A DNA stretch of 59,692 bases from Phycisphaerales bacterium (GCA_035654175.1 DASRXL010000059.1:1-59692), one strand, 5' to 3'. Numbered from the stretch's first letter, positions 3,758 through 49,710 are shown. A program made the numbers and translations. Notes: generated by a model from the letters alone, not told the origin.

Positions 3758-3786
3758 GAATGCGCCTCCGTGATCTCGTGTCGCGC

Positions 3787-5118
3787 TCACGGGAAAATCC
3801 CGCGCTCTTGGTACACCTGCTCGATCCTGCCGAGCGCCACGACGTACGCCGCGGTCCGCCAGTCGAGCCGCCGCTGGTTGGCGACGGCCTTCACGAGCGA
3901 ATAGGCGCGGACGATCGTCTCGCGCAGGCGGAGGTCCACCTCGCGCACGTCCCAGGTCGCCCGGCTCCTGCTCTGGAGCCACTCGAAATAGCTGACGATC
4001 ACGCCGCCGGCGTTGCAGAGCACGTCCGGCAGCACGTGGATCCCCCGCGCCTGCAGCACCGCGTCGCCCTCCGTCGTGGTCGGGCCGTTGGCGCCCTCCG
4101 CGACCAGCCGCACCTGGAGCAGGTGCGCCGTCTCGCCGGTGATCTGGTTCTCGAGGGCCGCGGGGATGAAGACGTCGGCGCTGGTCCGCAGGAACTCCCC
4201 GCGCGTCACCGCCGCGGCCCCCGCGAAGCCTCGCACCCCGCCCGCCTGGCGCACGTGCGCCGCGAGCGCCTCGGCATCGATGCCCTCCGCAGCACGCACC
4301 GCCCCCGTCACGTCCTCCACCGCCACGAGCCTGGCGCCGAGCCCCTGAAGGATGCGCGCCGCCCAGCCCCCCACGTTGCCGAAGCCCTGCACGATGAACG
4401 TCAGGCCGCGCACCTCCACCCCGTTGTCCTCGGCCCAGCGCACCACCAGGTCCGCGACGCCCTGGCCAGTCGCCTTCTCACGCCCCGGCGAGCCCCCCGC
4501 CGCCACCGGCTTGCCGGTCACCACGCCGAGCGCCGCGTGCCGCTCGCCGGGCGGCAGCGTCGCGGCGTAGGCGTCCACCACCCAGGCCATCGTCCGGCTG
4601 TTGGTGTTCACGTCCGGAGCGGGGATGTCGTAGTCCGGACCGATGTTCGGCCCCAGCGCGTACACGAATCGGCGCGTGAGCCGCTCCAGCTCGGCCTGGC
4701 TCAGCTTCGAGGGATCGACCTGCACCCCTCCCTTGCCGCCGCCGAACGGGATGTCGACGAGGGCGCACTTGATCGTCATCCACGCCGCGAGCGCGCGGAC
4801 CTCGTCGATGCTCACGTCAGGGTGGTACCTGATGCCGCCCTTGTACGGCCCGAGCGCGTTGTTGTGCTGCACGCGGTAGCCGGTGAACGTCTCGACGCGC
4901 CCGTCGTCCATGCGCACCGGGAAGTTGACGCGCACCTCGCACTGGGGCTGCGCGAGGATCTTCCGCAGCGCGGGGGAGAGCTCGTGCGTCGACGCGGCGC
5001 GGGCGAGCTGGTCCTGCACGCGCTGGTAGAGCCTCGGCTGCGCGGGCGCGTCGGCGTGCGAAGCCGCGCTCCCGGGTGCGGTGGTGGTGGAGGCGGTGGC
5101 GCCGTTAGACCGTGACAT
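3787..5118 (-). CDS. gdhA: Glutamate dehydrogenase (Glu/Leu/Phe/Val dehydrogenase family)
   Basis: KGGIRYHPDVSIDEVRALAAWMTIKCALVDIPFGGGKGGV catalytic-lysine region, plus a Rossmann GFGNVG motif. Start re-called at MSRSNGAT. Confidence 0.9.
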   Translation of the reverse strand: MSRSNGATASTTTAPGSAASHADAPAQPRLYQRVQDQLARAASTHELSPALRKILAQPQCEVRVNFPVRMDDGRVETFTGYRVQHNNALGPYKGGIRYHPDVSIDEVRALAAWMTIKCALVDIPFGGGKGGVQVDPSKLSQAELERLTRRFVYALGPNIGPDYDIPAPDVNTNSRTMAWVVDAYAATLPPGERHAALGVVTGKPVAAGGSPGREKATGQGVADLVVRWAEDNGVEVRGLTFIVQGFGNVGGWAARILQGLGARLVAVEDVTGAVRAAEGIDAEALAAHVRQAGGVRGFAGAAAVTRGEFLRTSADVFIPAALENQITGETAHLLQVRLVAEGANGPTTTEGDAVLQARGIHVLPDVLCNAGGVIVSYFEWLQSRSRATWDVREVDLRLRETIVRAYSLVKAVANQRRLDWRTAAYVVALGRIEQVYQERGIFP

Positions 5119-5164
5119 CGGTGCGTCCTTTCTGGATAGGCGTGAAGATCGACGCCGGGACGCA

Positions 5165-5181
5165 ATGCAACGACCGTGCCG
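5165..5181 (-). promoter_or_regulatory. Sigma-54 (-24/-12) promoter upstream of gdhA
   Basis: The minus strand reads CGGCACGGTCGTTGCAT. GG and GC have the canonical spacing of TGGCACG-N4-TTGCW. Its 3' end lies 46 nt upstream of the ATG at 5118. Confidence 0.55.
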
Positions 5182-5280
5182 CGAGGGGATCGCCGGGGAG
5201 AGGCCGCGAGCAGGGCCGAAACCGGCGGGCAACCCCGCCGCGCGCGGGGAGAAACACCCCGCCGGGGCGTTTCGCACCGC

Positions 5281-6620
<1,340 letters not shown>

Positions 6621-17949: not shown

Positions 17950-18282
17950 TCACTCGCGGCCGAGCCGCCTGGCCCGCGCCGCCTCGAACAGCCCGGGCAG
18001 CTCCACCTGCTGGAGCATCTGCACGGAGTTCTGATTCAACACTCTATACACCGAGAGCCGCTCGGCCCGGTTGTCGAGCACGAGCAGGATCTCCTCGTTC
18101 CCGCCGCGGGCGGTCAGGGCGAGCAGGTGCGCCGATTCGGCGACCATCTCCGCCCTGGCGGGCTGCTGGAGCAGCGGCGCCAGGAGCATGCCGAGGATGA
18201 CCGCCATCGCCAGGGCGCACGCGAAGAGGGCGGGCTCGCCGGGCCGGGAGATCCGCGCCCGTTGGTCGGGTGTCGCGCTCAC
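17950..18282 (-). CDS. Small membrane-anchored protein, function unknown
   Basis: The GTG start overlaps the upstream stop (GTGA at 18279-18282). One TM (ALFACALAMAVILGMLLAPLL) followed by a domain of about 60 aa. Paralogous pattern to the 18279..18572 protein. Confidence 0.55.
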   Translation of the reverse strand: MSATPDQRARISRPGEPALFACALAMAVILGMLLAPLLQQPARAEMVAESAHLLALTARGGNEEILLVLDNRAERLSVYRVLNQNSVQMLQQVELPGLFEAARARRLGRE

Positions 18283-18572
18283 CGGCCGGTCTCCTTGTTC
18301 CCGTCCTCGTGCAGGTTGCGGTAATCGATGCCGTCCAGCTCGCCGCGGGACTGGTTCCAGCGGAGCGCGACCATCTCCTCGTTGATGGAGTCGATGACGT
18401 AGATGGCGCTCGCGTCGCCGCCGCCCTGGATCTCGCCCGCGACCATCGTGTACTGCCCCCGCGCCCGCGACGCGGGCTGGAGGCCCGCGGCGGAGCCCGC
18501 GAAGGCCGCCACCACGATCGCGCCGGCGAGCCCGAGGTTCGCCGCGATCAGCCATCGACGACGGGTCGCCAT
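18279..18572 (-). CDS. Small membrane-anchored protein, function unknown
   Basis: MATRRRWLIAANLGLAGAIVVAAFAG anchor, followed by a small domain (AIYVIDSINEEMVALRWN). Confidence 0.6.
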   Translation of the reverse strand: MATRRRWLIAANLGLAGAIVVAAFAGSAAGLQPASRARGQYTMVAGEIQGGGDASAIYVIDSINEEMVALRWNQSRGELDGIDYRNLHEDGNKETGR

Positions 18573-18622: not shown

Positions 18623-18850
18623 TCAGTCCTGGTGCCCCCGCTTGCTCGGGATCGCGTTGACCCCGATGCCGATCCCCGCCAGAACCACCAGGAGCAGCAT
18701 GTTCCGGACCGTCGGCGCGGCCCCGGTCTTGGTCGGGGCCGGGGCCTTCGGCCGCTCCTCCTGAGCCGCGCCCACACCGGGGAACGCGGCCAGGCTGGCG
18801 AGGGCCAGGACCAGGGGGACGAGCAGGCGGCGGGGGGCGGGGTGGTTCAT
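18623..18850 (-). CDS. Small secreted/membrane protein
   Basis: Internal start MNHPAPRRLLVPLVLALASLAAFPGVGAAQ (signal-like) and a second hydrophobic helix MLLLVVLAGIGIGV. It forms the 3' part of the 254-aa track ORF. Confidence 0.5.
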   Translation of the reverse strand: MNHPAPRRLLVPLVLALASLAAFPGVGAAQEERPKAPAPTKTGAAPTVRNMLLLVVLAGIGIGVNAIPSKRGHQD

Positions 18851-19330
18851 CGTGGGGGATGCTACGGGATGGGGGGCGGGGGGTAAAGCCGGGAGCGTGG
18901 CCAGGGCCTCCCGACCTGGAGCGTCCGTGCAGCGTCCGCCACCGGTTCCATCGCTGGCCCGTGCGCCGAGGTCCACCGGGCCCCAGCGCGGGCTCCGCAC
19001 CCGCGGCGCGCCGTAGCCATGCACACCCACCGCCCGCGGGGCGTACCAGCGGCCCCTGCGCTCGAGAGCTTCCTCGAAGACCCCGTCGGCCGGCAGCGCA
19101 TCATGCCAGTCCATGAAGGCGAAGACGGCCCTGAACTCTGGCCCGAAGAGCCCCTGCCACGCGAGCATCGAACTGACGTCGTCGGCCGCGACCCAGGATT
19201 CGAGCCGGCGGGTGCCCGCCCCGCCGCGCCCAGCGGGCACCGGCCGGCCCTTGATCTCGACCAGCAGATTCAGGCCGGAGCCGTAGACGACGAAGTCGAA
19301 GAATTTGGGAGTCTGTTCGAGTGGCAGTGA
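18851..19330 (-). pseudogene. 5'-truncated copy of the HYExAFE-type PD-(D/E)XK-like gene
   Basis: Aligns with the 27754..28350 protein from FDFVVYGSGLNLLVEIKG through RSPRWGPVDL. It lacks about the first 50 codons, including the HYExAFE motif, and has no stop codon of its own. Confidence 0.6.
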
Positions 19331-19628
19331 CGGTGGGAGGCTCGTAAACCTGAGGCTCGTCGGTCCGCGACGGCCGGCTGCCCACACACCTCCGGAGGCC
19401 CGTCACGGGAGCCCTTGGTGCGACCGCAAAGTGGACAAATCCGCCACGCATTTGTGCTGAGCGGCGCATCTTTGTGGGCATCACCGCACCCCGATCGACC
19501 TTCTGGCCCGCCTGTTGCATTCAGTGCCAACCCCCTGTACACTTCCCTTCCCAGTGGGCGTCACCCGCCTCGGCAGAGTCCGAGAAAGGGGTTTTGCCCT
19601 TGGACACGGTGGGTGCAGCGGGGGGGGG

Positions 19629-21797
19629 ATGCAGAGTTCGCCATTCAACATCAAGACAGTCAAGGACCCTGTTCATGGGATGATCGAACTTCACCCAATC
19701 GAGCAGCTGATCATCGACCGCCCAGACTTTCAACGATTGCGATTTGTCTCCCAGCAGGGACTGGCGCACTACACGTACCCCTCGGACCAACACTCGCGCG
19801 CACCCCACTCGTTCGGCGCGATGCATCTTGCCGGGCGAATGCTCAAGCGAGCACTTGAGAATGCAAGGCTGCCGGTTCTGGAGCGATTCCTCTGGGACGC
19901 CAGAGACCTGATCGCCACCATCGCTCATGCTCACTCGCACAAGGAAGCGAGAGTAATCCATGGCGCGGCGGAATTGATCCACAATGCGGTCGGCTTCAAT
20001 CATCGCCCGTACGCGAGCAATGACCGACTAGGACCTGGGTGGGTACATCCTAAAGGGAAATGGACCCATTTCAATTCCGACCCAGGAACTCCGTTCGATT
20101 ATCAGATGGCTTCCTATGTGATCGCCGTGCTCTGGCAAGCCGTACGGGTTGCATCACTTATCCATGACATCGGACACCTGCCCTACTCCCATACCTTCGA
20201 ACATGCAATTGACGACTTGTGGTTGCGTGCGCGAAGGAAACAGGTGGACGAAGACCCGCCGCGATCATTCGCAGCAGCATTCAACGAGCTGCATACTCGA
20301 TTTGACACGGTCTTTCGCAACCTTTTAAAGCAACTGGACATGCCGCGCCGCGTTGATGATCCGGGCGATTCGCCGCAAGTACAGGCCAAGCCGCGAATAC
20401 CACCTCATGAACAGATTGGAATTCTACTCTGTGACGTGTTTCCGTTCGAATCAGAGCTCCGCACGCCCTCTCAACAGGCGCTTTGGCAAGTAACGACCAC
20501 TATCGGACGCCTCGTATTTGGCTGTAACCCCGAGCTCTACGAGGGAGCCTCGGCCGAGAACTCTCCTCTTCAAACTGGGCGATTCGCAGTGATACAGGCG
20601 CTCCATTCAATCATGTCAGGCGAGCTGGACGCTGATCGGTTGGACTACAGCGTGCGAGACACTGCTACCGCTGCTGCCGGATTCGACTCCATAGATATCG
20701 AGGAGATCGTGGAGAACCTGCAGCTCGTGTCCCTTCCGACCGGAGGCTCGACAGAGGCAAGCAACCCCTATGCGATTGCGGTACGCGCCAAGGCGATTCC
20801 GCAGGTTGAGACTTTTTTCACGCAACGATTCATGGCGTACAGGGCAATCGTCGGGCACCATAATGTAGCGCGCTTTGATGCCATACTTGGCGCTGCGATC
20901 AAAGCCCTGATTGAGTCGTCACAAGATCAAGGCTCTGTCCTTTACCCGCTCTTGCGTGGGAGAGGCTTCGGGGGTTTTTACGACAATGCCTACAAATTCG
21001 GGCCATTTAATCCGGACACATATAGGCGATTCGATGACTGTTGGCTCAGATCTGTGTGTCAGGAGGCTCTTGAGTGTCTTTCCGCGCGAACCGGCGAGCC
21101 GTTGAAACCGCACGATCTGCAGACGCATCTTTTACTAGAGACATTGCTGGAGCGCAAGACCTCTAATCTCCTGTCGTTGTTCAAGAACGAAGGACATCGT
21201 TTAGCGTGGCGAACAGACCTCGTGGATCGGTTAGGGCGTCATGAGTTGTTCGCCAGCGAGGAGTTGGCAAGGGAGCTTGTGGACCGCGTATTTGCCACCG
21301 ACTGGGACGACATTCCCCTACTGATGGATGATGACGGAGGGCTGTTCGATCCCGTCGAGTTTGTGGAAATGAAGCTGCTAGTCGGTGCACGGGAGGTAAC
21401 CGCGAGTAAGGATGCGGAGCGCTCTGTGGTCTTGCCCCTCCTGTCTTTCTGTCGGCCTAGGCTCCTCGACAAACGGCCGATGGATGTGGTGCTGGACATG
21501 GCAGAGACGCTCCCCATCCGACCTGGCCCGGCGCTCGCCGGGCGCGTCGCAATCGCCTGCTCCGCCAGCTCTGACTTGAGCGATGTTCGGGACTTGCCCG
21601 ATGCCTCGCTTACGCTGCGAGGCTTGGCTAGACTTCTGGCTACCTTTCCTCGGCTCAACCTGGCCTTTGTGGGTCGGGCCGTGCGCGATGCCGATAACCC
21701 GAACCGATTGCGCTCGGTTGCCCTGGACGCGGTCGGAGATCTGTGCGTGGCCATGAGGAATCATGAACTCCGAACCGAACGGAGTGCAGTGGCATGA
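19629..21797 (+). CDS. HD-domain phosphohydrolase (SAMHD1/dGTPase-like dNTP triphosphohydrolase family) with long unassigned C-terminal region
   Basis: DPVHGMIELHPIEQLIIDRPDFQRLRFVSQQG, HSRAPHSFG, LIHDIGHLPYSH and DADRLDYSVRD give the H..HD..D metal-binding pattern. Start re-called at MQSSPFN. G+C is visibly lower than in the flanks. Confidence 0.9.
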   Translation: MQSSPFNIKTVKDPVHGMIELHPIEQLIIDRPDFQRLRFVSQQGLAHYTYPSDQHSRAPHSFGAMHLAGRMLKRALENARLPVLERFLWDARDLIATIAHAHSHKEARVIHGAAELIHNAVGFNHRPYASNDRLGPGWVHPKGKWTHFNSDPGTPFDYQMASYVIAVLWQAVRVASLIHDIGHLPYSHTFEHAIDDLWLRARRKQVDEDPPRSFAAAFNELHTRFDTVFRNLLKQLDMPRRVDDPGDSPQVQAKPRIPPHEQIGILLCDVFPFESELRTPSQQALWQVTTTIGRLVFGCNPELYEGASAENSPLQTGRFAVIQALHSIMSGELDADRLDYSVRDTATAAAGFDSIDIEEIVENLQLVSLPTGGSTEASNPYAIAVRAKAIPQVETFFTQRFMAYRAIVGHHNVARFDAILGAAIKALIESSQDQGSVLYPLLRGRGFGGFYDNAYKFGPFNPDTYRRFDDCWLRSVCQEALECLSARTGEPLKPHDLQTHLLLETLLERKTSNLLSLFKNEGHRLAWRTDLVDRLGRHELFASEELARELVDRVFATDWDDIPLLMDDDGGLFDPVEFVEMKLLVGAREVTASKDAERSVVLPLLSFCRPRLLDKRPMDVVLDMAETLPIRPGPALAGRVAIACSASSDLSDVRDLPDASLTLRGLARLLATFPRLNLAFVGRAVRDADNPNRLRSVALDAVGDLCVAMRNHELRTERSAVA

Positions 21798-22081
21798 CAC
21801 CAACAGCCGAATCAAAAGGTGTGCTCACTCTCCGGGACAGCGAGCTTGCTCGTGCTCTTCGTTTGATCAGAGAGCAGGAGGGATTGACTGCGCATGAGCT
21901 GGCAGTTCGCGCTATGACGAAGGGTCGTTGCCTCCAGCTCCGCCAGGGTTCCTCGGAGCAAGAGTACCTTGCGAATCTCAAGCGAGCTGGCTACGTTCGT
22001 AGTGACGATGGCATGCGGTACTTCTTAACCGCGCAGGGGCAATCACTGCTTGAGCGTCTGGAATCCCAGGCTGATCGCTGA
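21794..22081 (+). CDS. Small winged-helix-like protein coupled to the HD gene
   Basis: Its ATG overlaps the HD gene stop (ATGA at 21794-21797). LTAHELAVRAM...EYLANLKRAGYVRSDDGMRYFLTAQG resembles an HTH plus wing. The family is not recognised. Confidence 0.6.
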   Translation: MTPTAESKGVLTLRDSELARALRLIREQEGLTAHELAVRAMTKGRCLQLRQGSSEQEYLANLKRAGYVRSDDGMRYFLTAQGQSLLERLESQADR

Positions 22082-22869
22082 ACTGAGTCAGTCCAGAAGA
22101 GAGCTGCCGAAGGTTAGGCAGATAGCCCAAGCGCGCTAGTCGCTCCGCATGCCTCGGCTCTAGCCGGTAACTGTTGCGGACCGCTCGCGCGAGGTGCGGA
22201 AGATCTGCGCAAACCGCGTCAGCCCTGAGCCGTTCGGCTCCGAGCATCGGATTCTTCGTGGCAAGCTCCAGCACCTGGATGGGCACACGGAGTGCCGGCT
22301 CACTGCCCTCCTCCGGGTCCGCCCAGTACGCGAGTGCGCCGTTGTAGTCGGGCCGCATCTGGGCGCTGCCGGTCGTGACGCCGACCGCCACCACGCCAGG
22401 AGCACAGCGCCGCCTGCTACCGCGGTTGCGCCACAGGTACACCGTCTGTCCAGGAGCGAACTTCGAGGCGCACCTGGTCGCCGGCCACAGGATGTCCCGG
22501 GTCGTGACGAGGTAGCTGTCAAGGTCGAACCTGTCGGGGCTGCGCTGGAGCAGCCAGGCTAACGGTGGGGTAGTAGACGCAGCGGGCGTCGCCCGTTCCG
22601 GATGTCTGGCTCGCACCTCGACGCCGAGCGCCTTGAGGAACCCGGCCGCACGGTCCGGCCGTAGCCCGCCGGGCACCTCGTGCGGCATCGGCTCCCGCCC
22701 CGTCACCCGCCGGGGCGGCCACCCCGACCAACGCCTTGGAGTCGTAGATGTTGCCGTTGAGCACGGCGACGTACTTGCTCGGCACGCGGACCGCCGGGCG
22801 CTCGCCGGCGTCCCACTGAGCGGCGGCTTCCAGAACATGGTCGAGGGTGATGCCGTCGGGGATGGACAT
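21978..22869 (-). pseudogene. Frameshifted McrA-like N-terminal head domain + EVE (PUA-like) domain protein
   Basis: Frame A gives MSIPDGITLDHVLEAAAQWD...KYVAVLNGNIYDSKALVGVAA. It continues in another frame as ...VPGGLRPDRAAGFLKALGVEV, then EVE-like DRFDLDSYL...GQTVYLWRNRG...GVVAVGVTTG. The shift lies near 22690-22725, at C/G runs. Confidence 0.6.
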
Positions 22870-22964
22870 AGCGCGATAGCGTGCAGGGGCTGGCTCACAG
22901 CATACATGAGGTCCGCGCTTCTGGCGGCGAGCCCCTTCAGATACACTGATGTCGAAGCGCCGCC

Positions 22965-23690
22965 ATGCATATCCGTAACTCCATCTCGCGGCTCTATCGC
23001 CAGTGGCGCGAGGCGGGAAGAATCCACCGACGGCGCATGGTCCTGCTGTTGTCGGTGATGGCACCCAGGACCATCGGGGGCGGATTGCTCCACCTCATGG
23101 ATGGTGCTCCCTCCTGGGTCGCGTCGCTGCTGTCGGTGGGATGGATTGTCCCGGTGTGGCTTCTCATCTCCCTGTCGGAGCGGACCATCCGCAGATCCGT
23201 CAACGAGCGGGATAGCGCAGTGTGCTGGCAATGCTGGTATCCGCTTGGGGGCGCGAACAGTCGCTGCTGTCCAGAGTGCGGGTCGCCTTTCGAGGCGTCA
23301 GAGCTTCGGGAGCGCTGGCGGCTCGTTGTCTGGCTCGGGGACAGGACTGCGCACCGCGTCCTGCGGGCGCTCATGATGGTCGGCATCGCTGTTCTGTCGT
23401 TGTGGCTCCTGGCGGCGGTGTTCCTCGGGCTCGGCCCGAATCTCGGCCTTCCGTTCGGGTACTACGGGAAGCTCAGCCGCGTCGTCTCCCGGCTTGAGTC
23501 GATCCCCGGGGTAGAGGTCGTGGACGTTGCCACGAACCATGACGTGACTCTTGAGGACTTCCTCGTCGTCGTGTCCATCCACGGCACGCGCCGTGCATCC
23601 ATTGAGTTCCCCGATGCGGACGCGCCGGTGCTGCTGCGCATCGTGCACGACTGGAAGGCCAGAGAGGTTTTTGGGGATGTCGCGGAATAG
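22965..23690 (+). CDS. Membrane protein with zinc-ribbon-like CxxC..CxxC motif
   Basis: CWQCWYPLGGANSRCCPECG sits between hydrophobic helices (WVASLLSVGWIVPVWLLISL, MMVGIAVLSLWLLAAVFLGL). The start is uncertain. Confidence 0.5.
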   Translation: MHIRNSISRLYRQWREAGRIHRRRMVLLLSVMAPRTIGGGLLHLMDGAPSWVASLLSVGWIVPVWLLISLSERTIRRSVNERDSAVCWQCWYPLGGANSRCCPECGSPFEASELRERWRLVVWLGDRTAHRVLRALMMVGIAVLSLWLLAAVFLGLGPNLGLPFGYYGKLSRVVSRLESIPGVEVVDVATNHDVTLEDFLVVVSIHGTRRASIEFPDADAPVLLRIVHDWKAREVFGDVAE

Positions 23691-23849
23691 CGAGTGCGCG
23701 CGTATGCATCGGCGTGCACTCCCCTGCGCATGATGCTGCACTCGTCGTCAGTGCGCGCTCGCAGCCGAGCACACACGGATGATGATTTGCGCTCGTTGTT
23801 GCGTTAGAATGTGAGCGCACGGAGCGATTCGAGCCACGGAGGGCCCACC

Positions 23850-24333
23850 ATGCACATCGCGTTCAGGCCCATCGACGACATCAAGCCCTACGACAAGAAC
23901 CCCCGCGTCAACGACGACGCGGTGGACTCGGTTGCTCGCTCGCTCCAGGAGTTTGGGTGGAGGCAGCCGGTCGTCGTGGATGGGACAGGGCCATCATCAT
24001 CGGCCACACGCGGTGGAAAGCGGCCCGCAAGCTCGGGATGGAGCAGGTGCCGGTGCACGTTACCGAAGGCCTCAGTCCAGAGCAGGCCCGCGCCTACCGC
24101 ATCGCCGACAACCAGGCGGCGAGCATCGCGGAGTGGACTACGAGTTGCTGCCGATCGAGATGGCCCAGCTGAAGGATCTGGGCCTCGACCCCTTCATCCA
24201 CAGCTTCGACGACGAGGAGCTGACCAAGCTCACGGCGTCAGCCGGCTGCCCAGCACCGCTCCACACGCTCCTGGCTCGACGGCGCTCTGGTCCTGCTCTG
24301 GGAGGCGGAGCCCGACCGGCTCTCACGGGCTAG
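23850..24333 (+). pseudogene. ParB-like N-terminal (nuclease/partition) domain gene with two frameshifts and a lost C-terminal part
   Basis: IKPYDKNPRVNDDAVDSVARSLQEFGWRQPVVVD in one frame. RAIIIGHTRWKAARKLGMEQVPVHV...ARAYRIADNQAASIAEW in a second. DYELLPIEMAQLKDLGLDPF in a third. Shifts lie near 23982 and 24135, at G runs. An RBS GGAGGG precedes the ATG. Confidence 0.6.
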
Positions 24334-24425
24334 GCCACCTTCCGCGACGGCCCGCCCGTCGGAACCGCGGGCAAGCACGCTGTTCCGAAGTCGTGGGAGG
24401 GAAGGGCGCGCAGGCGCAGTGGGCC

Positions 24426-25151
24426 TTAGGGAGACCCGGGTACCCGGCTGCGAGACTCCGGCGGGTAGAGCACGATGCTGCTTCGCCCGGTGGACTCCGA
24501 CGGCCTCACACGTGCGAACTCCGTTCCCGCGGACAACCCGATCGCCATCCCGTGGCACAGCGCGCACAAGCCTGTCTCAAGGATGGCCAGGAGCACGGGC
24601 CGGGAGCTGAAGGCCGGTACAACCGCGCCGCTCACAACCGCCACGCTCTGACGCTCCCACCTCGTGGGCGACCCGCAGTAAGGGCAGTCGCACTCGAGAC
24701 CGCCAAAGCCGCCGAGCAATTCGTACGCCCGCCAGAGGGATCGCTCGGGGAGCTCATCCAGTGCATGCGCCATTTCGCAGCTCTCCGCCCCCGTGGTGCC
24801 TGCATACCCGAGATGGCTTCGACCGTCGGCGGGTGCATGAACGGGCGTGGCTCCCGCCTGCGCACCGTTCGCACCCCGTCTCGCCGTCTCGCCGGGAGCC
24901 ATCCCGATCGCGTGCCGGCGCGCCAGCTCGCGGAGCGCCGCCCTCAGGGCCGCCTCGTAGCCGCCGCCAACCTTCGCGTAGAGACGCTTCGCCGTGCGGG
25001 CACTCAGTGCTCCCCTGCACTGTCCGCAGAGCGGTTGGCCCGCCGCCTTCTCGCCGGCGCACGCCGGACACACGGCGGAATCGCGCGACTCGATCAGGCT
25101 TAGGCGGTACTCCTGCTCCGGCTCACCTATGGATCGGGGAAGCTCCGGCAT
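24426..25151 (-). CDS. Cys-rich hypothetical protein (two zinc-ribbon-like motifs)
   Basis: Start re-called at MPELPRS; its ATG overlaps the upstream TAA (TAATG). CPACAGEKAAGQPLCGQC and CDCPYCGS motifs. No family recognised. Confidence 0.5.
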   Translation of the reverse strand: MPELPRSIGEPEQEYRLSLIESRDSAVCPACAGEKAAGQPLCGQCRGALSARTAKRLYAKVGGGYEAALRAALRELARRHAIGMAPGETARRGANGAQAGATPVHAPADGRSHLGYAGTTGAESCEMAHALDELPERSLWRAYELLGGFGGLECDCPYCGSPTRWERQSVAVVSGAVVPAFSSRPVLLAILETGLCALCHGMAIGLSAGTEFARVRPSESTGRSSIVLYPPESRSRVPGSP

Positions 25152-26959
25152 TAAGCAGCCTCCTTCTGCGCGCCGGCGGCACCCTCCTCTGCTGCGCAAA
25201 GACGGTTGAGCGTCCGGAGCAACTGCGCGAACGTGACCGGCAGCGGGAGCCCGACAGACTGCCGATCCCGGGCGATCTCCCCCGGAAGCGCGAGCTCACC
25301 GGTCGGGGAGATGACCAGAAGGGGCAGCCGGGCTCCGCCGGCCGCCTCCTCCAGCTCGCGCAACCTGCTCGCCGCGGGCACGGACTCTGCCGGCGAGGCA
25401 AGGTGCACAACCGACACGTTGGGCGCGGCGTTCGCATCGCGGAGCCGGTCGAGCGCAACCCCGACCGCGTCGACCCCCGGTCTGAGCGAGGCGAACAGCG
25501 GGTTGATCGGAGTGATGAGGCGGCCGCGGTGCCGCTCGCGCACCGGCGTCCACGGCTGCGAATGGCCCACCATGAGCAGGGAGAACTTGACGTCGTCGGT
25601 CTCCTTCTCGGCGCGTTCAAGCGCACCCTGGAGGTCCTCGCCGCGGAGGTTCAGCAGCTGCGCGAGGGCTTCGGTGGGGTAGAGCGTGTCGTTCCCGCTC
25701 GAGCCGATCATGGCTGCGTGCGCCAGCCTGTTCGAGAGGGCGAGTATGGCGGACTCCGCCAGTTGTTTCTTGGCGTGCTCACGCAGGTTCGAGGCCGAGA
25801 GGTGGTGCGAGGCCAGCGGCACGACCAGGTCCTTCGGAAAGCTCCACATGAGCAGGAGCCGGTCCATGATGTCGGCGTGGTTCAAGAGCAGCAGCCGGGC
25901 CTCGACCAGCTCGAGCGGCAGGTCCAGCCGCTCCGCAACCTCAAGCACGTGCGCGTACTCGGGCGCGAAGTGCTCCGCCAACACCATGCGTCCCAGGTCA
26001 TGGAGGAGCCCGAGCGTGAAGGCGCGGTCGGGGTCGAGCTCGCCCGTCAGGCGGCCGATCTCGGCCGCGAGCAGCCCGCACGCGATTGAGTGCTCCCAAA
26101 AATGCATGAAGTTGAACCTGTTCGAGATCATCACGCCCGAGAAGGAGTCGATCAGCTCCAGGTTGAGGACGAGGTCCCGGATGTTCTTGGTCCCGATCCG
26201 GAGCACAGCGTCGCGCACGCTTGTCACAGGGTCGCCCCGCTCGAACAGGGTCGAGTTGGCCAGCCGCAGGACCTTGAGCGCGACGCTCTGGTCGCGGGCG
26301 ATCACCTTGGCGATCGCGTCGAGCGAGGTCGCGGGATTCGCCGTGAGCCTGGTGATCTGCGTCACGGTGGGCGACATGGCTTTGACCTCGGAGATCTCCC
26401 GGATCCGCTCCAGGATCGCGGAGCGCGTGACCACCGGGCGAAGTTCTCGAAGCGACGCGGCCCCATTGTTCACCGCATGCCCCGTGGCGGGACCGCGCGC
26501 CTCGGGCTTCTCCTCGTGTCCCGGAGGCGGTGCCGCCGCCTGTGCGCTCCGGACGGCCGGGCGTCCCATCCCCTTTTCGCGCCTTCGGCATGCGCTGCCG
26601 GCGAACGCGGCCGCCCAGCGGCTCGGATCCAGCGACCGCTTGAGCAGGAATCCGTCCGCGCCCGCCTGCACCGCCGCGAGCACTTCCTCGCGGCCGGCAC
26701 TCTCCGTGAGCACGATCCCCGAGATCTTGCGGCCGTCGGCGCGGAGCTGCGACACCAGTTGAACCACCGAGAGCCCACCCTCATCCGGCAGCTTCCACTC
26801 GGTGACGACCATGTCGATCTTGCCGGAGGCGATGCGTTCCGCCGCTTCCGCGGCCGTGCCCGCCTCGACGGTGCTCTGCCCCGATATACCGAGCAGCGTC
26901 ACGAGCAAGCGACGATACGATTCGTTGGGCTCCACAACGAGGACGTTCAACGGAACCAC
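25151..26959 (-). CDS. Response-regulator receiver + HDOD domain signalling protein
   Basis: REC (LVVEPN...DMVVTEWKLPD...GFLLKR). HDOD (MSPTVTQITRL...LKVLRLANSTLF...HSIACGLLA...GLLHDLGR). A C-terminal region of about 200 aa is unassigned. Confidence 0.85.
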   Translation of the reverse strand: MVPLNVLVVEPNESYRRLLVTLLGISGQSTVEAGTAAEAAERIASGKIDMVVTEWKLPDEGGLSVVQLVSQLRADGRKISGIVLTESAGREEVLAAVQAGADGFLLKRSLDPSRWAAAFAGSACRRREKGMGRPAVRSAQAAAPPPGHEEKPEARGPATGHAVNNGAASLRELRPVVTRSAILERIREISEVKAMSPTVTQITRLTANPATSLDAIAKVIARDQSVALKVLRLANSTLFERGDPVTSVRDAVLRIGTKNIRDLVLNLELIDSFSGVMISNRFNFMHFWEHSIACGLLAAEIGRLTGELDPDRAFTLGLLHDLGRMVLAEHFAPEYAHVLEVAERLDLPLELVEARLLLLNHADIMDRLLLMWSFPKDLVVPLASHHLSASNLREHAKKQLAESAILALSNRLAHAAMIGSSGNDTLYPTEALAQLLNLRGEDLQGALERAEKETDDVKFSLLMVGHSQPWTPVRERHRGRLITPINPLFASLRPGVDAVGVALDRLRDANAAPNVSVVHLASPAESVPAASRLRELEEAAGGARLPLLVISPTGELALPGEIARDRQSVGLPLPVTFAQLLRTLNRLCAAEEGAAGAQKEAA

Positions 26960-27241
26960 TCCTTTCCAAGAGGAAGGCGTTCAACAGCAAGCGGCCGAAC
27001 GTGTGGTCTCGATGGGGCGAACTGCCCTGGACACGATCCATCGGGGATTCGTCCATCTTCACCCCGGCAGTTGAATGAATCCGTCAGATGGTCGTTGCGC
27101 GCGCACAAGGCGCGCAAGCGTTGTGGACGACGCCACAACATTGTGGTACATGTGCCCGATCCGGCGCATCACTGCGTAGTTCGCCAGCCCGCGGATCCCT
27201 GGGAGGTGGAGCCTGCCGCGAAACGATGGCGCCGCCGTGGA

Positions 27242-27523
27242 TCAGGTGTCGGCGAGGCTGGCATCTGCGAGGCACGGGCCAACTTCGAGAGCCCCGGACA
27301 GATCGAGCGGCGCTCCCGCTATCACGGGGCCAAGGGCCACTGGGTTCTCGATGCGTGGATTGAGACGTGGCTCGCGCCCTGGTTCGCGGATTGGTGACTC
27401 GACGACCTTCGCCGTCCGCGGTGCCCGCTTCGTGCCATGCACGGCGATCCTGACGAGTACGGCACCCTCCTGCACCCGCGGCGGCTCGCCGGGCCCGCGG
27501 CCGCACCGCATTGTCGTGTTCAA
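27242..27523 (-). CDS. Possible small ORF, function unknown
   Basis: Third-position G+C is higher in this frame than in the overlapping plus-strand frame. No recognisable motifs; TTG or ATG start. Confidence 0.3.
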   Translation of the reverse strand: MNTTMRCGRGPGEPPRVQEGAVLVRIAVHGTKRAPRTAKVVESPIREPGREPRLNPRIENPVALGPVIAGAPLDLSGALEVGPCLADASLADT

Positions 27524-27753
27524 GGACTGCGGAAAGGTTCGGCATCGGCAAGCACAAGTGTGTCGAGGGACATTCTTCCTAGCTGTCGCACTTGCGCGGC
27601 AAACCGGCCGCGATCCAGATGACGATGTGGCGGATCACACCCGCAGCCTACAGGCGACCCCTTGAAGGCGATAGGGGTCTGTTGGAGTCTGGAGTGTCTC
27701 GCACATCGCCCAGCATGGCGCACGAGCAGACTTGCCAGCCCATGTGCGTCAAC

Positions 27754-28350
27754 TCACCCCCCAATAGGCTCCATCGCCGGCTCCGCAAGGCCTACGCCAC
27801 TCGCCGCCAGCGAGCCCCGGAACGGCTGGCTCAGGCGCGCGTACACCGCTCCCGGCAGGTCCACCGTCCCCCAGCGCGGGCTCCGCACCCGCATCGCGGC
27901 CGCGTACTCGCGCACGCCGACGGCCCGCAGCGCGTACCACCTGCCCCGGTGCTCGACGATCTCCTCGAAGAGCCCGTCGGCCGGCAGCGCGTCGTGCCAG
28001 TACATGAAGAGGAAGACCGCCCGGAACTCCGGCCCGAAGAGCCCCTCCCAGGCCAGCATCGAGCTCACGTCGTCGGCCGCGACCCACGACTCCAGCCGGC
28101 GCGCGCTCGCCCCGTCCCGGCGCACCGGCACCCGCCGGCCCTTGATCTCCACCAGCAGGTTGAGCCCGGCGCCGTAGACGACGAAGTCGAAGGATTTCAG
28201 GCTGGCCTCCGGGCGCGCCTCGCCCCACGCGGGCTCGGGGAGGCGCGGCAGGAGCGCCTTCTTGGCCTCGTTCACCGCGACGTACGGGATGCGCTCGGCG
28301 CGCAGGAAGGCCTCGAACGCCTGTTCATAGTGGTGGCGGCGCTGGGCCAT
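27754..28350 (-). CDS. HYExAFE-type protein with PD-(D/E)XK-like motif (intact copy)
   Basis: Begins MAQRRHHYEQAFEAFLRAERIPY. FDFVVYGAGLNLLVEIKGR fits a D...ExK nuclease-fold core. Paralogous to the remnant at 18851..19330. Confidence 0.8.
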   Translation of the reverse strand: MAQRRHHYEQAFEAFLRAERIPYVAVNEAKKALLPRLPEPAWGEARPEASLKSFDFVVYGAGLNLLVEIKGRRVPVRRDGASARRLESWVAADDVSSMLAWEGLFGPEFRAVFLFMYWHDALPADGLFEEIVEHRGRWYALRAVGVREYAAAMRVRSPRWGTVDLPGAVYARLSQPFRGSLAASGVGLAEPAMEPIGG

Positions 28351-33974: not shown

Positions 33975-34847
33975 ATGGCCAGGCGCGGCGGCGAGCCAAG
34001 CGAGCGTGAGAACGGCGGCGCGGTCGAGCTGCGCGCCGAGCGTCTTGCGAAATCCTTCAACGGGCGCGAGGTGCTGCGCGAGATCAACCTCGAGGTCCGC
34101 CGTGGCGAGATCGTCGCCATCGTGGGCGCCTCCGGCTCGGGCAAGACGGTGCTCCTGGACTGCCTGCTCCGCCTGCTCGACGTCTCGGGGGGCAAGGTGC
34201 TCGCCGCCGATCACGGCCGGCGCGCTACGCCGCTCATCGATATCACCGGCGCCCCCGAGCGCGTGCTGCAGCGCATCCGCCTGCACTGGGCGGTGGTCTT
34301 CCAGCGCAACGCGCTCTTTAGCGGCACCGTCTACGACAACATCGCGCTGCTCCTGCGCGAGCACTTCAACATGCGTGAGGCGGAGATCATGCGCCGCGCC
34401 CGCGACAGCCTGGCCGCGTGCTCGCTCGACGTGGACGACGTGATCCGCAAGGACCGCGACGAGCTCTCGGGAGGCATGGCCAAGCGGGTCGCCATCGCCC
34501 GCGCCATCGCCATCGACCCCGCCGTCATCTTCTACGACGAGCCGACCACCGGCCTCGATCCCGTCGTCAGCGGGCATATCCACGAGCTGATCTGGAACAT
34601 GCACCACCGCCCCCGCGCCGGCGGCGGGCAGCGCACCAGCGTGATCGTCACCCACGACAAGGAGCTGCTCCGCCGCATCCGCCCCCGCGTGGTCATGCTG
34701 CACAAGGGCGTCATCGTGTTCGACGACGAGTACGAGATGTTCGGCATCTCGCCGTCGGCGCCCGCGCAGGAATACCTGCGCGAGATGCCCGTGCTCCACG
34801 GCCGCCGCGCCCAGGGCGGCGAGGGCCCGATGTCCCCGCGGCACTGA
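33975..34847 (+). CDS. Second MlaF-like ABC transporter ATP-binding protein
   Basis: Walker A GASGSGKT, signature LSGGMAKRVAIARAI, Walker B VIFYDEP. ATG at 33975; the track start at 33966 is a GTG. Confidence 0.85.
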   Translation: MARRGGEPSERENGGAVELRAERLAKSFNGREVLREINLEVRRGEIVAIVGASGSGKTVLLDCLLRLLDVSGGKVLAADHGRRATPLIDITGAPERVLQRIRLHWAVVFQRNALFSGTVYDNIALLLREHFNMREAEIMRRARDSLAACSLDVDDVIRKDRDELSGGMAKRVAIARAIAIDPAVIFYDEPTTGLDPVVSGHIHELIWNMHHRPRAGGGQRTSVIVTHDKELLRRIRPRVVMLHKGVIVFDDEYEMFGISPSAPAQEYLREMPVLHGRRAQGGEGPMSPRH

Positions 34848-34853
34848 GGAAGG

Positions 34854-34940
34854 GGTCTTGGGTCTTGAGTCTTCGGTCTTAAGACCTGGGGCTTGCGATC
34901 TGCAATCCGAGATCCGAGATCTAAGATCTGAGATCTGAGG
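34854..34940. repeat. Degenerate heptanucleotide arrays (GGTCTTG-type, then GAGATCY-type)
   Basis: GGTCTTG GGTCTTG AGTCTTC GGTCTTA, containing the 12-bp palindrome GGTCTTAAGACC at 34875-34886. This is followed by period-7 units AGATCCG AGATCCG AGATCTA AGATCTG AGATCTG. Confidence 0.8.
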
Positions 34941-35047
34941 CTTGGATTGGGTGGCCCGGGGCTGAATTGCCTGCGGCGGCGTGGTCGTTGTGCACTCCAC
35001 TTCGAGCTAGCCTCGCTCGCACGATCGCGGCCTGCTCCGCCCTCCAC

Positions 35048-35220
35048 GACTCAAGAGTCGAGCCCCAACCCTCAAGACTCAAGCCCCAACGCTCAAGACC
35101 CAAGACTCAAGACTCAAGACTCAAGACTCAAGACTCAAGACTCAAGACTCAAGACTCAAGACTCAAGACTCAAGACTCAAGACTCAAGACTCAAGACTCA
35201 AGACTCAAGACTCAAGACTC
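35048..35220. repeat. Heptanucleotide tandem array (CAAGACT)n, about 17 perfect copies plus degenerate leading copies
   Basis: Perfect period-7 repeat from 35101 to 35220, with degenerate copies from about 35048. It is the reverse complement of the 34854 array unit. The last units encode the C-terminus and stop codon of the minus-strand gene ending at 35198. Confidence 0.95.
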
Positions 35221-36190
35221 CCAGCTCCGGCAGATGCTTCACCATGCTCGAGATATACTTGAACACGCTGTCGCAGAAGATGCACACGCCGACGCCGCCC
35301 GCGACCCGCTCGCCCTCGCGGCGCAGGTAGCGCCGCGCCGCCTCGAAGATCAGGCCCGAGCTGGGGCCCGCCAGCAGCCCCTCGCCCCGGCACAGCTCCG
35401 CGGCGGCCGTGAACGCGAGCTCGCCGTCCAGCTCGATCACCTCGTCGAGCTTCGAGCGGTCGAAGAGGCCCGACACCCGCAGCTCCGAGGCGTTGCGCAC
35501 GCCCGGCACGTCGTGATCGCTGTCCGGCATCGCCGCGACGACCTTCACGCCGGGGTTCTTCGACTTGAGAAACTCGGCCAGCCCCATCGCGGTGCCGGCG
35601 GTGCCCAGCGCCAGGAATACGTGCGTCACGCGCCCCGCGGTCTGACGCCAGATCTCGGGGCCCGTGGTCTCGGCGTGCGCCCGCGTGTTCATCCGGTTCT
35701 GGTATTGATCAGGCATCACCCGGCGCTCGGGGTCGGCCGCGGCCTGGGTGCGGGCCATGCCGATCGGGCCGTTCCCCAGCTCGACTGCCGAGGTGTAGCT
35801 GTCATCCACCACGTCCAGGTCCGCGCCGCACAGGCGCAGCAGCACCTGCTTCTCGATCGGCGCCTTGCTCGGCATCACCGCGTGCATCGGGATCCCGCGC
35901 GAGGCGGCCAGGGCGGCCAGCGAGAGGCCGGTGTTGCCGCTGGTCGGCTCGATGATCGTGCGCCCCGGGCGCGCCGGCCCGATCTCGCCCCGCTCCTCGA
36001 GGTCGCGCAGGATCCTCGCCGCCGCCCGGTCCTTCACCGACCCGAACGGATTCATCCACTCCAGCTTGGCATAGAGGGAGTAGGCGTCGGCGAGCGGGTT
36101 GAGCCGGTTGATGCGCACCATCGGCGAGGGATTCGCCTCGCTGGGCAGCATCTGGGCGACATCGTCGAAGACGCGGGTCTGGAGGTCCAT
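35198..36190 (-). CDS. Cysteine synthase family PLP-dependent enzyme (CysK/CysM-like)
   Basis: NPFGSVKDRAA (PLP lysine) and TSGNTG. Start re-called at MDLQTRVF. Confidence 0.85.
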   Translation of the reverse strand: MDLQTRVFDDVAQMLPSEANPSPMVRINRLNPLADAYSLYAKLEWMNPFGSVKDRAAARILRDLEERGEIGPARPGRTIIEPTSGNTGLSLAALAASRGIPMHAVMPSKAPIEKQVLLRLCGADLDVVDDSYTSAVELGNGPIGMARTQAAADPERRVMPDQYQNRMNTRAHAETTGPEIWRQTAGRVTHVFLALGTAGTAMGLAEFLKSKNPGVKVVAAMPDSDHDVPGVRNASELRVSGLFDRSKLDEVIELDGELAFTAAAELCRGEGLLAGPSSGLIFEAARRYLRREGERVAGGVGVCIFCDSVFKYISSMVKHLPELGVLSLES

Positions 36191-36252
36191 AGGCGGTGAC
36201 ACGGCTCTCTGACGGCACGGCTGCCCCGCCGCGCGATTCTTTCGGCCCGAGC

Positions 36253-37758
36253 CTAGGCGCGGAGAGCGTCGCAAAGCCGCCCGTGAAGGTCCGCCAAGGC
36301 CACCCTGCCCTCCCACTGCCGGTTCTCCCGCAAATCCTTCACCGTGCAGGTCGAGGCGTCCTCGATGATCACGGCGAACCGGGCCCGCGCCTGCCCCGCC
36401 TCCTTGAGGAGCTTGCCCACGTTCTTCGACGCCTTGTAGGAGTGGCGGACGTGGAGAGGGGTCCCGAGTCTTGAGTCTTGAGTCTTGAGGCCCGAGGCCT
36501 GCGGCGCTGTGCCGCGGCGGAGGCGGGCGACAAGGGGGCGGAGGGAGGCGTCGGCCTCGGGAGCGCCGTTAGAGATCACAAAGACGTCCGGGTGCTGGCC
36601 GACCAAGCCCATCAGCTCGTCGTCGGAGGGCATGAGGCCCTTGTCCTGGAGCAGCAGGCTGAGGACGACGTCGCCCATGGCGAAGCCCACGGCGGGCGTG
36701 GGGGGGCCGCCGAAGAGTTCTATCAGATTGTCGTACCGCCCGCCGCCGGCGACGGCGCGCTCGCCCTCGGCGATGACCTCGAAGACGGTGCCGGTGTAGT
36801 AGGCGAGGCCGCGGGCGATGGAGAGATCGGGCATGCACCATTCACCCAGTCCAATCTCATCTAGAATCTTTGAAAGGCGAGCGAGCGGCGAGAAGTCGAA
36901 CTGTACCTTCCGATGTCCGTCACCTGACCGCAGCCACTCGTGCCCCTTTTTCAGTAGCGACTCGCAAAGCTCCTTTCGAGCATTGAATCCCTCGTCATCG
37001 AAGCTCGCCGCGGCGCATGCATGTTCGAAGTCGTCATTCGACATCTTCGCGTGGCGATCGAGCAGTGCAAAGATCGCGTCGTGTCGTTCCTCGGGAACGC
37101 GCATGTCGCGAAGCATGCTTGTGACGACGGGTCTACTTCCATAACGAATACTCACGTCTTGGGCCGATAGCCCGAATGCTGTGAGACTCGCGACACAGCA
37201 CGCGATGCACTCCGCATCCATCCTCGCCTTCGCCTCTGCGACCTCTGCGCGCCCCTCTGCGTCCTCTGCGTTCCACTTCTCCGGCGGGATATCCAGCCCG
37301 ATCACATCGCAGTTCCACTGCAAAAACTCCCGCAGCCTCCCCCGCTGAGGCCGCTCGGCCCGGAAGAACGGCCCAGCCATGAACCACTTGCACGGCTTCG
37401 GCAATCCCGCGGCCCTCGCCGCGTACATCCGCGCCAGCGTCGGCGTGAACTCCGGGCGCAGCGCGAAGGGCGCCCGCCCCGTCGCCTTCACCTGCTCCAC
37501 TTCGTCCGGGCTCTTGCCGCTGAAGGCCTGGAACAGCTCCCCGAGGATCCCCTCGCCGCTCTTGACCGCATACAGCTCGCTCTCCTCGAACGTCGGCCCG
37601 TCCACCTCCTCGAAGCCGTGGCGGATGGAGACCTCGCGCCAGCGGTCGAGCAGCCACCGTCGCCTCGCCGCCTCCACGGGGTAGAGGTCCCGCGTGCCGC
37701 GGGGGGATTGGATCTGGCGGGGGCCGGTCCGCTCCGCGCTGTGCTCGGATCCGCTCAT
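36253..37758 (-). CDS. hisS: Histidine--tRNA ligase
   Basis: PRGTRDLYP, class II motifs (FRAERPQRGRLREFLQWNCDVIG; GGGRYDNL), and an anticodon-binding end with ARFAVIIED. Start re-called at MSGSEHSAE. Confidence 0.9.
   Translation of the reverse strand: MSGSEHSAERTGPRQIQSPRGTRDLYPVEAARRRWLLDRWREVSIRHGFEEVDGPTFEESELYAVKSGEGILGELFQAFSGKSPDEVEQVKATGRAPFALRPEFTPTLARMYAARAAGLPKPCKWFMAGPFFRAERPQRGRLREFLQWNCDVIGLDIPPEKWNAEDAEGRAEVAEAKARMDAECIACCVASLTAFGLSAQDVSIRYGSRPVVTSMLRDMRVPEERHDAIFALLDRHAKMSNDDFEHACAAASFDDEGFNARKELCESLLKKGHEWLRSGDGHRKVQFDFSPLARLSKILDEIGLGEWCMPDLSIARGLAYYTGTVFEVIAEGERAVAGGGRYDNLIELFGGPPTPAVGFAMGDVVLSLLLQDKGLMPSDDELMGLVGQHPDVFVISNGAPEADASLRPLVARLRRGTAPQASGLKTQDSRLGTPLHVRHSYKASKNVGKLLKEAGQARARFAVIIEDASTCTVKDLRENRQWEGRVALADLHGRLCDALRA
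36467..36487. repeat. Three heptamer units (AGTCTTG)3 inside hisS
   Basis: Same unit as the 35101-35220 array. On the coding strand it is (CAAGACT)3, read in frame as LKTQDSR. Confidence 0.8.
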
Positions 37759-49486: not shown

Positions 49487-49551
49487 CACAGCCGCGTGCC
49501 TGAGCACGCGGAAGACCTGATCGGTGTTCGACGCCTCCTATGGGCCGCCAC

Positions 49552-49589
49552 AAAGCGCCCGGGATGAACATCCCGGGCGCTTTCGTTTC
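49552..49589 (+). terminator. Rho-independent terminator
   Basis: 13-bp perfect stem AAAGCGCCCGGGA / TCCCGGGCGCTTT with a 6-nt loop, then CGTTTCG. Confidence 0.75.
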
Positions 49590-49601
49590 GGATGCGGATC
49601 C

Positions 49602-49710
49602 AACACAGAGGCACAGAGCGAAAACTTTGAATCGGAGCCTGTGGATGGGGCCGGCATTGATTCGACTCGATGTGTCTCTGTGTCTCTGTGTCTCTGTGCC
49701 TCTGTGTTCG
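49602..49710. repeat. Octanucleotide tandem array (TGTGTCTC-type) with a distal 16-bp inverted repeat
   Basis: TGTGTCTC x3, then TGTGCCTC and TGTGTTCG (49671-49710). AACACAGAGGCACAGA (49602-49617) is the exact reverse complement of 49693-49708. Confidence 0.75.

Follow-up and report, generated by a model that had tools for sequence, protein, structure and literature searches.

A degraded, mosaic island beside the HYExAFE gene of a Phycisphaeraceae genome, and its possible origin by recombination with the gene

The window analysed here, a stretch of 59,692 nucleotides (nt) from a Phycisphaerales bacterium (GCA_035654175.1, DASRXL010000059.1:1-59692), derives from a high-G+C (~72%) Phycisphaerales/Phycisphaeraceae metagenome-assembled genome (MAG). 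Positions 18,851 to 28,350 contain an intact gene of the HYExAFE family, a block of cargo genes, and a truncated second copy of the HYExAFE gene in direct orientation. On balance, the segment is probably a genomic island, old and degraded, that lies 3' of the HYExAFE gene and was left by an element that recombined with the gene. The island is fixed in the population, as judged from the presence of 20 kb of the window in four other assemblies with at most one mismatch.

The insertion and its two HYExAFE copies

The state of the locus without the island is seen in relatives. The closest ortholog found, P0002 (83% identical), lies at an island-free locus, L005, with the gene order ABC - MlaD - hydrolase - HYExAFE - 75 amino acids (aa) - 97 aa - 105 aa - PSP1. 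The same order, continuing into the signal peptidase gene, occurs at L010, whose ortholog is 67% identical and which is likewise an empty site. The flanks of both loci match the window on both sides, with one intact gene between. A further 80 HYExAFE loci surveyed from metagenomes are all single-copy, and in the approximately 45 with enough flank to place the 97-aa gene, this gene lies 450-850 nt downstream of HYExAFE. The short spacer has exceptions only in the window population, in L011/L095 (a single lineage, represented by the Phycisphaeraceae MAG GCA_964435785.1 and by JGI 3300009868, respectively) and in L026. The insertion next to the HYExAFE gene, as claimed by the original prediction from the sequence, is borne out by these empty and single-copy loci. 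That prediction had also proposed looking in relatives for an empty site with a single intact gene, and L005 and L010 provide it. The spacer of L026 is occupied by a single 871-aa secreted-protein gene of native composition (3496-6111), without duplication of HYExAFE; this 3.4-kb gap was accordingly rejected as a further island. A 1338-aa Kelch/Ig gene, acquired independently of that in L026 and also of native composition and without duplication, lies in the spacer of L011 (7797-11813) and L095 (1670-5686).

By blastn, the window from 30998 to 27806 is collinear with L005 to the end of the gene, and collinearity returns at 18891. The extra DNA relative to the empty site thus spans 18896-27753 (8.86 kb, the truncated copy included), of which ~8.4 kb lie between the repeats. 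It starts right after the stop codon of the intact gene, where homology to both L005 and L013 (a third lineage, described below) stops. It ends at a promoter-like intergenic motif, GGCTTTACC-N17-CCCGTAGCAT (18851..18895, minus strand), which is native and conserved in L005, L006, L010 and L011. All relatives examined share this motif at the corresponding position, upstream of the 75-aa gene (at ~7799-7838 in L005 and ~12140-12180 in L011). The 75-aa gene itself (18623..18850, minus strand) encodes a native membrane or secreted protein, and its ortholog directly follows HYExAFE in L005, L010 and L006. At the other end, ~800 nt (26960..27753) hold no convincing open reading frame (ORF) and match no protein family or RNA (Rfam); since this region follows directly on the stop codon of the intact gene, the proximal boundary of the island is placed on this side. 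No tRNA, tmRNA or Rfam feature was found at the junctions.

The intact gene (27754..28350, minus strand) encodes 198 aa and is collinear with its orthologs in L005, L006 and L010 from the start codon through the stop codon, including the conserved C-terminal tail. It matches the NCBIfam profile NF038001 (HYExAFE) over its full length, at positions 1-164 of 166, with 197.1 bits against a curated cut-off of 60 bits for the whole-protein hidden Markov model score. The second copy (18969..19306, minus strand) is a dead, partial gene, comprising codons 51-165 only. Its ORF scores 94.3 bits against the same profile, yet aligns only to profile positions 38-153, which marks it as a fragment. The two copies form a direct repeat of ~340 nt (18969-19306 against 27857-28197), 81.5-82.6% identical in nucleotides and 79% in amino acids (BLASTP E=5e-63). 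Both the direct repeats and the clear divergence of the copies had been recognised in the original prediction; at the nucleotide level the divergence is ~18%.

The remnant lacks codons 1-50 and thus the N-terminal helix that carries the predicted catalytic acid E9; the first catalytic acid would therefore be missing from any HYExAFE copy without the first 50 codons. Its D and ExK catalytic residues are retained. It also lacks a stop codon, and its frame continues, in an ORF spanning 18623-19387, through the 75-aa gene, which has an ATG of its own at 18850. The absence of about 50 codons at the start and of the stop codon, and the in-frame run into the next small gene, had been described correctly; the loss of the last ~33 codons, which form the C-terminal tail, had been overlooked. 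Where the tail, the stop codon and the first part of the native spacer would be expected, there is a ~72-nt stretch (18896..18968, minus strand) that aligns to no ortholog tail or downstream region on either strand. Unique derived substitutions number 21 in the remnant, of which several fall on conserved residues, and 5 in the intact copy, which agrees with the remnant being a pseudogene. At third codon positions the two copies are 70% identical to each other, compared to 57-60% for either copy against L005 (57% for the remnant). Because the copies are closer to each other than to L005, the source of the second copy would lie within the window's own lineage.

A junction shared by three lineages

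The truncated copy is fused at its 5' end to a foreign sequence of ~38 nt, here called the leader, which consists of CCCACCGTCACTGCCACT, 9 variable nt and TCCCAAAT (19303..19340, minus strand), its last bases overlapping the first HYExAFE-homologous bases. It is present once in the window and recurs in L011/L095 (7244-7281 in L011) and in L013 (205-242), a contig of only 1.3 kb (JGI 3300048590). In each of these lineages, the truncated HYExAFE copy begins at the same codon as the window remnant. The two conserved blocks of 18 nt and 8 nt are identical at 26 of 26 positions in all three lineages, among which identity at the third codon positions nearby is no more than 57-70%. Upstream of the leader, the three lineages have unrelated sequences. 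None of 117 full-length HYExAFE members has a similar linker. The leader was therefore taken to be foreign DNA fused at a fixed point, and the idea that it is the natural linker of some family members was rejected. Pattern scans found it only in the L011 contig among genome contigs and nowhere in the JGI metagenome collection, and a profile search in which the leader was given extra weight yielded nothing but two irrelevant N-terminal fragments.

The truncated copies of the other lineages are better preserved, being still open ORFs with a complete tail and stop codon. In L011/L095 the copy is followed by the Kelch/Ig gene and then by the native series 78 aa - 97 aa - 104 aa - PSP1 - signal peptidase. 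In L013, 77 nt separate it from a truncated ParB gene, which is encoded on the opposite strand. The L011 copy closely resembles the gene P0047, the native gene of an empty-site relative. P0047 had itself been considered as a fourth truncated copy, and this was rejected, as it is a full-length gene cut by the contig end, with the normal '...SLKSFDF' linker and the native 75-aa, 97-aa and PSP1 genes directly after it. The truncated copies do not cluster together (2 supporting sites, versus 4-5 for groupings by lineage). In a tree resting on ~340 nt, with bootstrap values of 26-75% and thus a weak signal, the window remnant groups with the window's intact copy and L013, and the L011 copy with L005 and L006. 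Host-like gene sequence, a shared foreign leader and variable cargo are, as far as such comparisons can tell, the trace that repeated or ancient recombination of an element with the gene would be expected to leave.

The same findings bear on a distinctly improbable alternative, whereby the 3' part of the gene was duplicated locally, with no integrative element, in a common ancestor of the window, L011 and L013; cargo would then have accumulated between the copies, and gene conversion would have kept them alike within each genome. By their flanking genes, the window, L005 and L011 are about equidistant (79.6-80.8%). In favour of such an ancestry, the window and L011 form the closest pair by a small margin (80.8%, versus 79.6% and 80.0%), and the two copies of the window are sisters in the tree. 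The ParB fragment described below (78%) and the truncated copies have also diverged between window and L011 about as much as core genes (77-81%). The duplication does not explain, however, why the leader is foreign to all full-length genes, why the sequence upstream of it differs in each lineage, why the truncated copies fail to form one cluster, or why the equally close L005 has a clean empty site; the mobility of the cargo module within L095/L011 (100% identity on one side and 48-93% on the other) also speaks against it. From the 18% divergence of the two copies, and from a ParB fragment no closer than core genes, the core of the island is judged to be old and to have diverged along with its hosts. 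A single ancestral integration with loss in L005, or independent integrations by related elements, are both possible and equally compatible with the data.

The exact conservation of the leader raises a further idea, namely that leader and truncated copy together serve as a silent cassette or docking site, either for programmed recombination with the nuclease gene that is expressed or for cargo capture. The leader is conserved at the nucleotide level beyond neutral expectation, atypical A-ending codons included, the open reading frames and complete tails are retained in L011 and L013, and the cargo differs in every lineage. Yet the window copy is clearly dead, with substitutions at conserved residues and no tail; no recombinase is present; the arrangement occurs in only three lineages among the ~100 loci surveyed in all for truncated copies; and the leader gave no signal of a promoter, a terminator, conserved structure or covariation. 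A functional cassette is hardly credible on this evidence. Scarcely less doubtful, and very unlikely, is a dedicated docking site made of the 38-nt leader and the dead Hjc-like fragment, at which a recombinase acting in trans, or the Hjc-like nuclease of the locus by working on recombination intermediates, would repeatedly capture and swap cargo beside the gene. If true, it would amount to a previously undescribed island-capture system in Planctomycetota; of all features of the locus, only the nucleotide-level conservation of the leader might hint at novelty.

Cargo and the ParB-methyltransferase elements

Beginning at the remnant, the first cargo gene (19629..21797, plus strand) encodes an intact HD-domain protein of 722 aa with an N-terminus like that of SAMHD1, a deoxynucleoside triphosphate (dNTP) triphosphohydrolase. 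By phmmer, the likeness is limited to the first ~75 residues (7-78 against SAMHD1 chains, E ~1e-17). It is followed by the gene for a small winged-helix protein of 95 aa (21794..22081, plus strand; weak HTH_45 match, E=4e-4), apparently co-transcribed with it. Overlapping ORFs in two frames (21978..23231, minus strand), possibly a decayed gene, match no NCBIfam or Pfam family, six-frame scans included. A membrane protein of 217-241 aa with a zinc-ribbon motif (23037..23690, plus strand; weak DZR_2 match) is called as a gene in L001. Next comes a pseudogene in three frames (23850..24252, plus strand), which preserves the first ~130 codons of a ParB_N-N6/N4 DNA methyltransferase and has lost the methylase domain. 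The series closes with a 241-aa Cys-rich ORF without a family match (24426..25151, minus strand), downstream of an intact response regulator-HDOD protein of 602 aa (25151..26959, minus strand; Pfam HDOD 9e-50, Response_reg 7e-14).

This cargo is layered in composition. The HD and winged-helix module (19629-22081) has 57% G+C in a 72% genome, with windowed values of 55-58%. Its G+C at third codon positions (GC3) is 0.63 for the HD gene and 0.56 for the winged-helix gene, compared to 0.92-0.95 in the host genes that served as reference, and its tetranucleotide deviation (19.5-22.1 kb) reaches z = 7.2. Intermediate values are found between 22 and 24.5 kb (z ~2-3, GC3 0.73-0.84, with 0.73 for the overlapping ORFs). 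The response regulator-HDOD pair (24.4-27 kb) is nearly host-like, at z ~0 and GC3 0.79-0.87, the upper value being that of the response regulator gene, for which z is also ~0. Only the HD module looks recent by these measures; it may be very recent cargo and could represent a dNTP-depleting defence gene. The mosaic nature of the cargo, the lower G+C of the HD module and the signalling pair, the latter through the Pfam matches of the response regulator-HDOD gene, all stand as originally described. Of the two decayed genes to which a defence or mobile character had been ascribed, one proved to be the ParB_N-methyltransferase fragment, while the other (21978-23231) matches no family. PADLOC recognised none of the window's cargo proteins, its only matches being methyltransferases of L011 (MTase_II and mad2).

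The ParB_N-methyltransferase is the sole cargo common to the window, L011/L095 and L013. In L011 the gene is intact (428 aa; PADLOC MTase_II, 5e-100), and the three frame-shifted pieces in the window are 75-77% identical to it in amino acids; in nucleotides, the window fragment is ~80% identical to L013 and 78% to L011. The gene is cut at about codon 130 in the window and at about codon 118 in L013, and a shared deletion was rejected on account of these different cut points. Elsewhere in the Phycisphaerae, the module ParB-methyltransferase / 210-227 aa / ~110 aa / HARE-HTH is found with tyrosine integrases, prim-pol or terminase (L096, 5820-13867; L097, 3217-13196; L098, 1-7004; compare L011, 1-3482). 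L097 reads integrase - 618 aa - prim-pol - ParB-methyltransferase - 210 aa - 108 aa - HARE-HTH, its last four genes standing in the same order as in the L011 island (ParB-methyltransferase / ~215 aa / ~110 aa / HARE-HTH). L096 reads integrase - HTH_17 - ParB-methyltransferase - terminase, and L098 is a phage-like array of small genes with a homolog of the methyltransferase. The module recurs in integrative elements and prophages of the Phycisphaerae, with thousands of ~70%-identical homologs. The window fragment shares 60-77% protein identity with these elements; unlike them, with their integrase and prim-pol or terminase, it keeps only ~130 frame-shifted codons. None of the three carries a HYExAFE fragment or the full leader, and a 12-nt partial match to the leader in a DUF2971-like gene of L098 was judged to be due to chance.

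The module is evidently being exchanged, to judge from L095 and L011. These are 100% identical over the methyltransferase and 592-aa genes and 98.8% over the truncated HYExAFE copy, while on the ParB side identity falls to 93%, 65% and 48%, both contigs breaking within the module. Such a pattern would reflect a recent swap inside the L095/L011 island.

Recombination with the gene and comparison with known systems

The geometry of the locus, in which the intact gene is followed by cargo, a 5'-truncated copy and the native downstream genes, supports a history in which an element recombined inside the gene. A circular integrative element of the ParB-methyltransferase family would have carried a 5'-truncated HYExAFE fragment fused to an element-specific leader, and would have recombined with the chromosomal HYExAFE gene through its own integrase or by a RecA-mediated crossover of Campbell type. 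This would yield one complete and one 5'-truncated copy as direct repeats flanking the element. The integrase side may then have been lost and the ParB-methyltransferase reduced to its N-terminal fragment, while the truncated copy would have lost its tail and gathered substitutions. Cargo would have been layered in, beginning with the response-regulator pair, now nearly ameliorated, and ending with the SAMHD1-like HD and winged-helix module (57% G+C). The data show the insertion, the direct repeats, the junction common to three lineages, the relatedness of the cargo, its compositional layers and the decay, whereas the recombination step inside the gene, and which of the two copies is native, are points that we infer.

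Several observations weigh against this history. The original prediction had drawn attention to a perfectly identical stretch of 22 nt, whose positions are exact (19280-19301 and 28171-28192) and past which HYExAFE homology stops after 5 nt. This 22-mer encodes the invariant FDFVVYG motif, and it is also found in the single-copy HYExAFE genes of L005, L017, L020 and L092, down to 53-60% protein identity. It is only the second-longest run in the repeat, after one of 24 nt at the opposite end (27869-27892), and a run of at least 22 nt has a probability of 0.54 in random 340-nt alignments at 82% identity. The identity at the junction is thus no higher than the conserved motif would give, as the prediction had itself allowed, and the stretch fails as a crossover core, being by this comparison uninformative as to the crossover point. 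The intact gene has no detectable 5'/3' mosaic either. Over its first 105 nt, taken as the 5' part, third positions are 60% identical to L005 and GC3 is 0.96; for the 3' core the values are 60.5% and 0.95, both halves being host-like. An element donor as close as the window's own lineage would remain compatible with such a non-mosaic gene. The remnant, moreover, is not contiguous with native downstream DNA, having lost its tail and being followed by the 72 unalignable nt; the phylogenetic signal is weak; and searches of genome, metagenome, viral, phage and plasmid collections yielded neither a free nor an intact element targeting HYExAFE. Finally, neither the called genes nor the unannotated parts of the island, scanned against Pfam in six frames on X-masked translations, gave any sign of an integrase, transposase or other recombinase, in agreement with the original prediction. 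This last objection is weakened by the occurrence of the ParB-methyltransferase module in integrase-bearing elements elsewhere.

The main rival to recombination within the gene, and one that we consider unlikely, is built on some of the same observations. The island would have inserted into the ~18 nt that separate the HYExAFE stop codon from the promoter of the next gene, bringing with it an internal HYExAFE fragment acquired earlier from a closely related host by imprecise excision, and the intact gene would be wholly native. This fits the collinearity of that gene through its stop codon, where the homology to L005 and L013 ends exactly, its host-like GC3 without a mosaic signal, and the truncation of the remnant at both ends, with 72 unalignable nt before native DNA. 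The same spacer, furthermore, takes other inserts without duplication (the 871-aa gene of L026 and the 1338-aa gene of L011/L095). On the other side, the nearest relative of the remnant is the window's own gene (third positions 70%, versus 57% to L005), the L011 copy retains tail and stop codon and resembles the native gene P0047 of an empty-site relative, and recombination with the gene accounts more simply for a breakpoint at the same codon in three lineages. Of the original reading, an element that integrates into a gene and supplies a replacement gene end, the insertion, its geometry and a recurring breakpoint with its leader are thus upheld. The replacement of the gene end is not demonstrated, given an intact gene that is collinear through its stop codon, with equal third-position identity and host-like GC3 in both parts.

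Recombination between an element and the gene would be an ordinary event, the locus being the relic of an integrated mobile element and not of a new mechanism. In Escherichia coli, the element e14 and phage 21 integrate at the 3' part of icd, supply a substitute gene end and leave the icdC pseudogene. The window shares with them an intact gene on one side, a displaced, 5'-truncated and diverged copy in direct repeat at the far end, and relatives that have the empty site with one gene. In the window, by contrast, no integrase gene was found, and the duplication takes in about 60% of the gene (codons 51-165 of 198), with 18% divergence between the copies. The remnant lacks the 3' end as well and is not contiguous with the native downstream DNA, there is no identical crossover core beyond the conservation of the gene, and no mosaic signal is detectable in the intact gene. 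Host and target differ too: the window comes from a Phycisphaerae MAG, and the gene concerned encodes an Hjc-like nuclease that is uncharacterised. Campbell-type insertion-duplication, in which circular DNA with an internal or a 3' fragment of a gene enters by a single crossover, is mainly a laboratory tool. It predicts one complete and one 5'-truncated copy in direct orientation and needs no dedicated integrase, as in the window; unlike in the laboratory, the event would be natural, and no free circular form was found. The succession of leader, copy with complete tail and ParB in L013 is the arrangement expected of a free or tandem form, on a contig of 1.3 kb.

Genomic-island and defence hotspots hold variable cargo between conserved core genes. 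In common with these, relatives of the window carry variable cargo between the same two conserved genes, with layered composition, and genes of restriction-modification type (L011) and a SAMHD1-like dNTPase gene (window) are among it. In contrast to defence hotspots, none of the window's cargo matches PADLOC, and occupancy is rare, at approximately three lineages among the ~50 informative loci. The island of the window can no longer move. Its repeats (340 nt, 82% identical) might at most undergo homologous recombination on rare occasions, which would remove it and leave one gene. Should the recombination reading be true, the window would add to the examples of integrative elements that enter a protein-coding gene and later decay, in this case within the Phycisphaerae, a group that has been little studied. 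In practical terms, the analysis marks a variable-cargo locus beside HYExAFE, documents the ParB-methyltransferase element family in the phylum and flags the SAMHD1-like HD gene as cargo that appears recently acquired.

A more useful by-product concerns the uncharacterised HYExAFE protein, for which an Hjc-like fold and catalytic residues are predicted. The AlphaFold2 (AF2) model of the intact protein has a predicted local distance difference test (pLDDT) score of 84 and a predicted template modelling (pTM) score of 0.81. Its top Foldseek matches in the PDB are Hjc resolvases (2wcw, 2wj0, 2eo0 and 1gef; probability 1.00), with target-normalised TM scores of 0.6-0.74, and the restriction enzyme HincII ranks next. 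E9, D55 and K70 are invariant in 65 of 65 family members, 52 of which have E at position 68 and 13 of which have D. The model thus predicts that HYExAFE shares the fold and the catalytic E...D...(E/D)xK residues of the archaeal Holliday-junction resolvase Hjc. This supports the assignment of the family as predicted, Hjc-like members of the PD-(D/E)XK superfamily, in keeping with the PD-(D/E)XK-like label given at the outset, and nuclease or junction-resolving activity is likewise a prediction. A PDB sequence search returned no solved structure matching HYExAFE, and no mention of the family was found in the literature.

HYExAFE is a conserved, normally single-copy gene of housekeeping type. Its homologs number more than 1600, mostly in Phycisphaerae/Planctomycetota, and none was found on viral contigs, phages or plasmids in the respective collections. 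The neighbourhood is strongly conserved as MlaD - (hydrolase) - HYExAFE - 75 aa - 97 aa - 105 aa - PSP1 - signal peptidase. The 97-aa and ~105-aa genes (17950-18572 in the window) resemble paralogous small secreted proteins and are conserved beside PSP1 across the phylum. Outside the island, further dips in G+C occur in the window at 34500-37500 and 49500-52000 (0.64-0.66, compared to ~0.71), which may mark acquired segments.

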